DNA of 64,000 nt from Eledone cirrhosa (lineage: Eukaryota). The notes beneath the pieces were generated by a model. That model made no database searches. It saw only the letters and a list, made by a program, of their open reading frames with translations, and had not been told where the DNA came from. The first letter of the stretch is position 1. Each line of letters starts with the position of its first letter. The translations under genes were made by a program, and so were the position numbers. Shown here piece after piece: positions 28,184-29,033 of the stretch. The stretch covers positions 397,048,001 through 397,112,000 of the forward strand of contig OZ024741.1 of the NCBI GenBank assembly GCA_964016885.1, read 5' to 3'.

Positions 28184-28187
<4 letters not shown>

Positions 28188-29032
28188 AAGATCGGAATTA
28201 AGAGTATTCCGCAGTTCACTGTAATAATAATAATAGTATTAGCTCAAAGAAGAGTAGAGAATTTTCTTCTGAGCTCAAATGCAAATATGTTACACAAAGA
28301 GAAGTGTGTTACACAGTGAGATGTGTGTAAAGAATTATTACAAGTGAGTTTTACCGTTACTATATAGAGAACAATATCTACAGGTTTAGTAATTAAATAG
28401 AAAAACTAAGTCAGAATCAAATCTCTGAATTAGAGTTTTAAATTACCAACCTTATAACTATAAGTTTGCTGATACGAATCTCGCTTCGTTTCACCACTGA
28501 TATATGCAGTATAACAGGTCATAGGATCCTCAGTCAGCAAATGTGGACACTGTTCACGACACATCTAACCTTATGGATAGAGAGAAAGCTAATATACACG
28601 CTGCCCAGAGTGGGGCGAAATCACGTGTTATTTGCATCAAATTACGGCTCTCATGGATTGGGGAAAGTGCTAGAGAGGGCAGCCCAACCATTCGAATTTA
28701 TTAGCTCAACAATTTGGAGCTCGTTAAGTATACAAAGATCGGAATTAAGAGTATTCCTCAGTTCACTGTAATAATAATAATAGTATTAGCTCAAAGAAGA
28801 GTAGAGAATTTTCTTCTGAGCTCAAATGCAAATATATTACACAAAGAGAAGTGTGTTACACAGTGAGATGTGTGTAAAGAATTATTACAAGTGAGTTTTA
28901 CCGTTACTATATAGAGAACAATATCTACAGGTTTAGTAATTAAATAGAAAAAAACTAAGTCAGAATCAAATCTCTGAATTAGAGTTTTAAATTACCAACC
29001 TTATAACTATAAGTTTGTTGATATGAATCTCG

Positions 29033-29033
<1 letters not shown>
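28184..29033 (-). mobile_element. Retrozyme-like 1.5-mer tandem unit (period about 547-549 bp)
   Basis: 28184-28484 repeated at 28731-29033; one full HHR and one truncated HHR; non-coding; (TA)n on both sides. Confidence 0.75.
28465..28541 (-). ncRNA. Canonical type I HHR (family I)
   Basis: TTTGCTGA-CTGAGGA-[stem II region]-GAAA-CGAA gcgaga TTCG-TA-TCAGCAAA: 8-bp stem I, full stem III, GUA site. Confidence 0.85.

Follow-up and report, generated by a model that had tools for sequence, protein, structure and literature searches.

What does a direct repeat of about one and a half units, carrying a hammerhead motif and lying in a TA microsatellite, reveal about how it was copied and inserted? 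The question is raised by an insertion on the minus strand of a 64,000-nt stretch of Eledone cirrhosa DNA (hereafter the window), which a preliminary description had presented as its best retrozyme candidate: a monomer of about 549 nt bounded by hammerhead cleavage sites, in a greater-than-unit-length copy of the kind that rolling reverse transcription of a circular RNA would give. We found that this insertion is a real and young daughter copy, truncated at its 5' end, from a non-coding family of 549-nt hammerhead repeats. On its own the locus is an ordinary truncated copy; its value lies in the insertion anatomy of the family.

Anatomy of the insertion

The direct repeat of about 1.5 units was present as described. 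Its two copies (Table 1) are 98.0% identical over 306 aligned columns, in which they differ by four substitutions and one 2-nt indel. The monomer size likewise agreed, the cut-to-cut distance being 549 nt, or 547 nt on the other side of the indel. The region has a low GC content (0.32), and the insertion sits between two (TA)n tracts and uses the long 3' end of the family (28182). As a predicted RNA, the 549-nt monomer folds modestly better than shuffled sequences (z -2.38 when linear and -2.74 when circular, the latter against 40 shuffles). Three public runs from one sample, whose kind is not recorded, were compared as contigs and contained both the family and the short 3' end; contigs of runs X1 and X3 break into TA repeats at 28832, which is the short end within the upstream copy. 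None of the public runs listed is recorded as RNA. Antisense ORFs of 109-261 aa extend across the unit and look like the open frames of young copies.

Table 1. Features of the hammerhead repeat insertion, in window coordinates.
Feature	Position	Strand	Remarks
Whole insertion	28182..29034	-	Unit positions 537-549, 1-549 and 1-293; ~1.55 units; single arm
549-nt unit	28473..29021	-	Bounded by the equivalent site upstream and by the predicted cut
Redundant segment, upstream copy	28729..29034	-	Pseudo-LTR-like
Redundant segment, downstream copy	28182..28485	-	
Tail of ~100 nt	28182..28278	-	Separates the short 3' end of the family (unit 190-196, here ~28285-28279) from the long one (unit 293, 28182)
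(TA)n tract, element 3' end	28136..28181	.	Plus 4 bases, TATA, common to the element end
(TA)n tract, element 5' end	29035..29069	.	
Type I hammerhead motif	28465..28541	-	Stem I 28541-28534 with 28472-28465; core 28533-28527; helix II 28526-28493; GAAA 28492-28489; stem III 28488-28475; predicted cut 28473/28472
Second hammerhead site	29014..29034	-	3' half only, no core, two substitutions; 5' truncation point 29033/29034

A hammerhead motif with an atypical helix II

The hammerhead that had been described, with its 8-bp stem I, stem III, GUA triplet and predicted minus-strand cut, was found as stated. From 5' to 3' it comprises the first strand of stem I, the sequence CUGAGGA, a helix II region of 34 nt, GAAA and the GUA triplet, and its stem III consists of 4 bp plus an A15.1-U16.1 pair. 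The conserved core (CUGANGA / GAAA / NUH) and helices I and III are therefore present at the locus, and the term "canonical" is justified for these parts but not for helix II. In a canonical type I hammerhead, helix II is short and closed by a pair next to the core, G10.1-C11.1. At the locus helix II is instead long and irregular, with a U-U mismatch where the closing pair beside the core would be. Only 8 of 84 family copies have a pair at this closing position, and the other 76 are mismatched there. Large helices II are a feature of Penelope-type ribozymes, which also occur as opposite-strand pairs (PMC4209133), and the helix II of the locus resembles that of such variants, with its large size and unpaired 5' base.

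The predicted energies cast some doubt on the ribozyme fold. A fold that leaves the core free was calculated at -15.1 kcal/mol and the free fold at -20.9 kcal/mol, so that the active-type fold would be 5.8 kcal/mol less stable and is not the predicted minimum. The 96-nt ribozyme region has no folding advantage over shuffled sequences (z -0.78), and an Rfam scan of the window returned no hammerhead family hit at the gathering score. The core is intact in 75 of 89 family copies; its positions stay the same across subfamilies that differ at position 7 and in helix II, in a set of loci of which some were picked by the core pattern. A double change from G-C to A-U within helix II occurred in this copy only (1 of 72), with single changes elsewhere, and was not counted as covariation.

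The claim that the monomer is bounded by cleavage sites did not hold. In line with the truncation described at about 12 nt from 29022/29021, the 5' end of the insertion lies 12-13 nt before this equivalent site. The upstream site retains 12-13 nt of the ribozyme 3' side and lacks the 5' strand of stem I, the core, helix II and GAAA; two of the four substitutions between the repeats also fall inside it, one in stem III and one in stem I. Since this site has no core, the unit is not bounded by two ribozymes at 28182-29034 and, given the two substitutions as well, the copy could not release a monomer. By its sequence, this locus is excluded as a source of doubly cut monomer.

A dispersed family of non-coding copies

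When relatives of the unit were sought in the 3.0-Gb genome, the best 40 of 1129 candidates were scored, and the best places were 89-96% identical. The 16-nt 5' half of the ribozyme had 230 exact matches genome-wide against 1 for a reversed control, and a sister pattern gave a further 141 against 0. These counts show that the family is not a product of chance, and they bring its total to at least 371 ribozyme cores. A relaxed core pattern recovered only the sister subfamily of the same 549-nt unit. Every locus was picked by a query (length, core or 3' end), and the proportions reported here are biased for that reason.

Continuation into a Penelope-like ORF, which the preliminary description had named as evidence against a retrozyme, was seen in none of the sampled loci (30 chosen by core, 28 by 3' end and 20 by sister core). 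Upstream of the ribozyme the sampled copies contain more of the 549-nt unit, an inverted piece of it, or flank; an RT + GIY-YIG ORF, which would mark an autonomous Penelope-like element, is absent from them. A tandem non-coding unit, a type I hammerhead, a dispersed family and the lack of an ORF in sampled copies bear out the retrozyme assignment. The family is a non-LTR retrozyme, or non-autonomous Penelope-like element, and hence a new member of an already known kind.

Eight arms carry two ribozymes, and in six of them (L002, L007, L011, L018, L023 and L029) both cores are intact; by their sequence, such arms could be monomer sources. Two consecutive complete ribozymes are the criterion for an "active" retrozyme in a recent preprint, which also reports that 1 of 9 frog retrozyme dimers was cleaved in vitro (Li, Clavereau & Pollet 2026, bioRxiv 10.64898/2026.07.22.740005). 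This arrangement occurs within the family but not at 28182-29034, which has one core. Among the 162 listed cores on contigs C1-C3 there were two same-strand pairs at unit spacing, no triple and no long array, and the longest arm measured 1251 nt (2.28 units). On C4, segmental duplication has multiplied family copies along with the flanking DNA (L011/L012 and L080-L083).

Two fixed 3' ends and one arm per site

Insertion ends were compared for 154 arms from 98 non-redundant loci, with unit positions numbered from the predicted cut. Arms shorter than 45 nt were left out, as were 12 same-place or segmental-duplicate loci (L012, L037, L042, L048, L049, L053, L061, L062, L075 and L081-L083). The 3' ends fell at unit 183-199 in 63 arms, at 287-297 in 71 and elsewhere in 20. 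A TA repeat came next in 130 of the 134 arms that end at a standard site. Other TATA/ATAT sites of the unit (11, 17, 98, 109-111, 426, 509 and 517-519) were hardly used, which indicates that priming does not occur at just any TA-like spot. The 5' ends were scattered over the whole unit and lay within 5 nt of the cut site in 3 of 134 arms, compared with about 2.7 under an even spread; the usual template does not look like a ribozyme-cut linear RNA. With the 3' ends fixed at two sites and the 5' ends spread, the copies are permuted at the 5' side only, and the circular permutation that had been suggested as a check is therefore seen at one end of the element but not at the other.

Arms in both orientations were present at 51 of the 98 loci. 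Of the loci with a single arm on each strand, the 38 whose two ends both lay at standard sites always combined a short end with a long one, where free choice would give this in about half. Three-armed loci and those with an end at some other site were omitted from this count. By sample these loci numbered 12, 6, 14 and 6, and the two core-selected sets together accounted for 12 of 12. No literature on this family or on a strict one-arm-per-site rule was found in titles and abstract openings, a search in which subscription journals were thinly covered.

Comparison with Penelope-like elements and known retrozymes

With its two internal 3' ends, optional tail, partial tandems, inverted arms and microsatellite target, the family has the traits of Penelope-type insertion, and we consider mobilisation of this type very probable. 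Penelope-like elements form partial tandems and inverted truncated arms with a bias towards microsatellites, also without a canonical ribozyme, and have a tail of 30-40 bp that is often at one end only (PMC8557442). The family shares their partial tandems, inverted 5'-truncated arms and AT-rich or microsatellite targets; unlike them it has no ORF, and its tail is about 100 nt. The Penelope-like protein of the anole cuts and extends both strands, with two internal starts downstream of the ribozyme and a tail (PMC11167929). Like Poseidon of Anolis in that study and the anatomy in PMC8557442, the family has two internal 3' ends downstream of its ribozyme and an optional tail. Its junctions have a TA-like overlap of a few bases, whereas the anole start site is non-homologous to the target (PMC11167929).

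Autonomous elements exist in the same genome. One RT + GIY-YIG family (famB; L091-L100 and L136-L138), with full ORFs of about 880-920 codons elsewhere in the genome, has two ends, 40 nt apart, that abut TA, and one of each was present in 5 of 5 two-armed loci. Its insertions exceed unit length, and a motif scan of its pseudo-LTR revealed no canonical hammerhead. Within the window, 5175-7021 is a two-armed, 5'-truncated copy of this young family, with the GIY-YIG end at 5910-6797. In a second family (famA), all three copies examined (L133-L135, on C1, C2 and C12) have a 409-codon frame that overlaps, in another phase, the start of a 775-codon RT-GIY-YIG frame; a programmed frameshift, an intron or a two-ORF layout are possible. 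A hammerhead scan across 6 kb of famA found none. A third family is represented in the window by a GIY-YIG-like fragment with an inverted piece (10531-11118), which has no Pfam hit. The 549-nt unit showed no significant similarity to famA (L121-L135) or famB, and a search of 598 kb of DNA with the family profile for an autonomous partner gave, beyond the family itself, only one hit with E=0.14. In the loci examined, the stretches downstream of RT or GIY-YIG hits yielded no ribozyme of the family type.

Animal retrozymes have been described with units of 170-400 nt, in a study that showed circles for those of coral and mussel and named Penelope-like elements as their candidate mobilisers (PMC7229834, Cervera & de la Pena 2020), and more recently with units of 51-972 bp linked to pseudo-LTRs (10.64898/2026.07.22.740005). 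The unit length that had seemed unusual is indeed above the former range but lies inside the latter. Like metazoan non-LTR retrozymes, the family has a non-coding tandem unit, a type I hammerhead and a low GC content, and is dispersed in a genome that also has autonomous Penelope-like elements. It differs from them in its long helix II with a mismatched closing pair, and its cleavage and circle are predictions. Coral retrozymes form up to 62-mers, whereas family copies are mostly below two units and arrays were not seen. Two fixed 3' ends and inverted arms are not described in the consulted text of PMC7229834 or of the 2026 preprint. Non-autonomous Chlamys elements such as MRC1 (PMC8557442) are likewise non-coding, pseudo-LTR-forming, head-to-tail and trans-mobilised. 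They generally resemble the autonomous family at the 3' end, whereas no matching partner was found here; they are also mostly without canonical ribozymes, whereas this family has a ribozyme motif (PMC8557442). Plant LTR retrozymes share with the family a non-autonomous, ribozyme-bounded unit, but have a type III ribozyme, LTRs, PBS/PPT and a 4-bp target duplication, as opposed to a type I ribozyme and TA-embedded ends.

Circular or linear template

The explanation that we favour, with a probability of roughly 0.55, is that the 549-nt repeat was inserted in the TA microsatellite by a trans-acting Penelope-like RT-endonuclease, likely from a circular monomer RNA. A Penelope-like enzyme would nick both (TA)n strands, and reverse transcription would begin inside the RNA, at unit ~190-196 on one strand and at ~293 on the other. 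Each cDNA would then run back through the ribozyme junction and stop at random. Retention of both arms would give a head-to-head insertion, and retention of one arm a copy like 28182-29034. This sequence of steps seems to us highly probable as a whole. That the template is a circle is less certain, though somewhat more likely than not: the two ribozymes of the rare copies with two cores would excise it, and a host ligase would close it. The copy at 28182-29034 allows at most one cut with its single core, and it is likely a dead end for circle production.

Two other explanations account for the repeat differently. In one, which is very unlikely, an autonomous Penelope-like element lost its ORF by 5' truncation and left the repeat as its pseudo-LTR pair or 3' remnant. 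The anatomy does resemble Penelope-like ends, and truncated copies typically carry single and opposite-strand ribozymes (PMC4209133), but sampled copies that extend upstream all run into more unit, up to the 2.28 units of the longest arm, and none of the sampled loci continued into an ORF. Still less probable is a SINE-like monomer that inserted once and acquired its second part by local DNA duplication or unequal crossover. Variants common within loci, the high identity of the repeats at 28182-29034 and the satellite-type amplification proposed in 10.64898/2026.07.22.740005 would agree with it; however, independent loci on many contigs agree in phase and use the same pair of 3' ends, a recurrence that largely excludes local duplication, and inverted arms keep the one-site-each rule while arrays were not seen among the listed cores on C1-C3.

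Whether the template was a circle bears on the preliminary description's proposal of rolling reverse transcription. Greater-than-unit length is compatible with this but not diagnostic, because Penelope-like elements generally form partial tandems even without a canonical ribozyme (PMC8557442), as famB does. We therefore turn to the sequence variants. Pairs of repeats from one locus have 3.5 non-majority variants in common, pairs from different loci 0.5, and the average difference is 2.8% within loci and 5.9% between them; the nearest neighbour was a copy from the same locus for only 19 of 63 segments. At 10 loci with both tandem and inverted copies, tandem laps differed at 60 of 2107 positions, and opposite arms at 45 of 1869 when the lap was the same and at 38 of 1441 when it was not. 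Tandem laps thus resemble each other about as closely as opposite arms compared lap for lap. Three-way comparison of 1006 sites in these loci gave 15 variants present in all three copies and 13, 11 and 9 lone variants. Derived variants shared by two copies were distributed 3 (last lap and inverted arm) : 1 : 0, of which a linear tandem predicts the 3, a difference that is not significant. Lap-specific differences common to loci had the same orientation in 23 cases and the opposite in 15, a non-significant lean to a linear template. A circle fits these sequence data, but an almost identical record would be left by template switching or by a tandem transcript that is homogeneous and uncut, and the repeats could also have been made uniform by gene conversion after insertion.

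The strongest competitor retains Penelope-type mobilisation and has as template a linear partial-tandem transcript (uncut, cut-but-paired or template-switched), with a ribozyme inherited from a pseudo-LTR and no need of a circle. We regard it as possible but not probable. In its favour, the anole protein, a predicted dimer, does not need ribozyme cleavage and uses uncut RNA as its main substrate in vitro (PMC11167929); famB makes greater-than-unit two-ended insertions without a canonical hammerhead in the scanned pseudo-LTR; the 3:1:0 and 23:15 counts lean that way; and the predicted ribozyme fold is doubtful. On the other hand, no long arrays that could serve as masters for arms of more than two units were seen among the C1-C3 cores and the measured arms, laps are alike to the same degree as opposite arms, and the core is constant while position 7 and helix II vary among subfamilies, with loci partly chosen by core. 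Given Penelope-type mobilisation, the sequences would on balance somewhat favour a circular RNA template.

A specific form of the favoured explanation, which we offer tentatively and rate as unlikely in its entirety, is that rolling-circle reverse transcription with twin priming has left its genomic record in the family. An enzyme dimer would act on one ribozyme-made 549-nt circle, two strands would be primed at fixed sites 100 nt apart, and both cDNAs would roll past the ligated junction. If this were true, the 38/38 rule and the homogenised laps would be anatomical evidence that Penelope-like enzymes mobilise animal retrozyme circles, and the one-sided Penelope tail would be explained. In the portions of the literature consulted, movement of animal retrozymes by a circle and a Penelope-like enzyme is a proposal that rests on co-occurrence and pseudo-LTR similarity. 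The present family has a Penelope insertion signature, a short non-coding unit and many young copies alongside apparently intact autonomous ORFs, a combination that allows a single system to be used to test whether circles are involved and how the one-sided tail arises.

Neighbouring elements in the window

Immediately adjacent to the insertion, 29070-29279 holds a TA-flanked, two-armed element of another family, for which the best 40 of 138 candidates were scored. It has an inverted short arm and a long arm with an 80-nt tail, and is built like the hammerhead-repeat insertions. An apparent hammerhead 3' half is present (GAAA, a 4-bp stem III and UC), and CUGANGA within 400 nt upstream was absent in 16 of 20 loci of this family, many copies of which consist almost only of inverted arms. 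Other type I hammerhead motifs in the window lie at 7293-, 9120-, 15899-, 16019+, 34990- and 37504- (the sign gives the strand) and belong to at least four other families, with 15899 and 16019 forming a back-to-back pair; a relaxed scan added 53402+ and ~34173-. Elsewhere in the genome, L038 has three hammerhead motifs at 310-nt spacing and L033 two at 467-nt spacing, and these short tandem repeats are probably further retrozyme families. A weak tRNA match (29.9 bits) at 51842-51899 is likely the head of a tRNA-derived SINE. Finally, SINE-like copies in opposite orientation, 83% complementary to each other, lie on either side of the region at 27774-27888 and 30348-30462.
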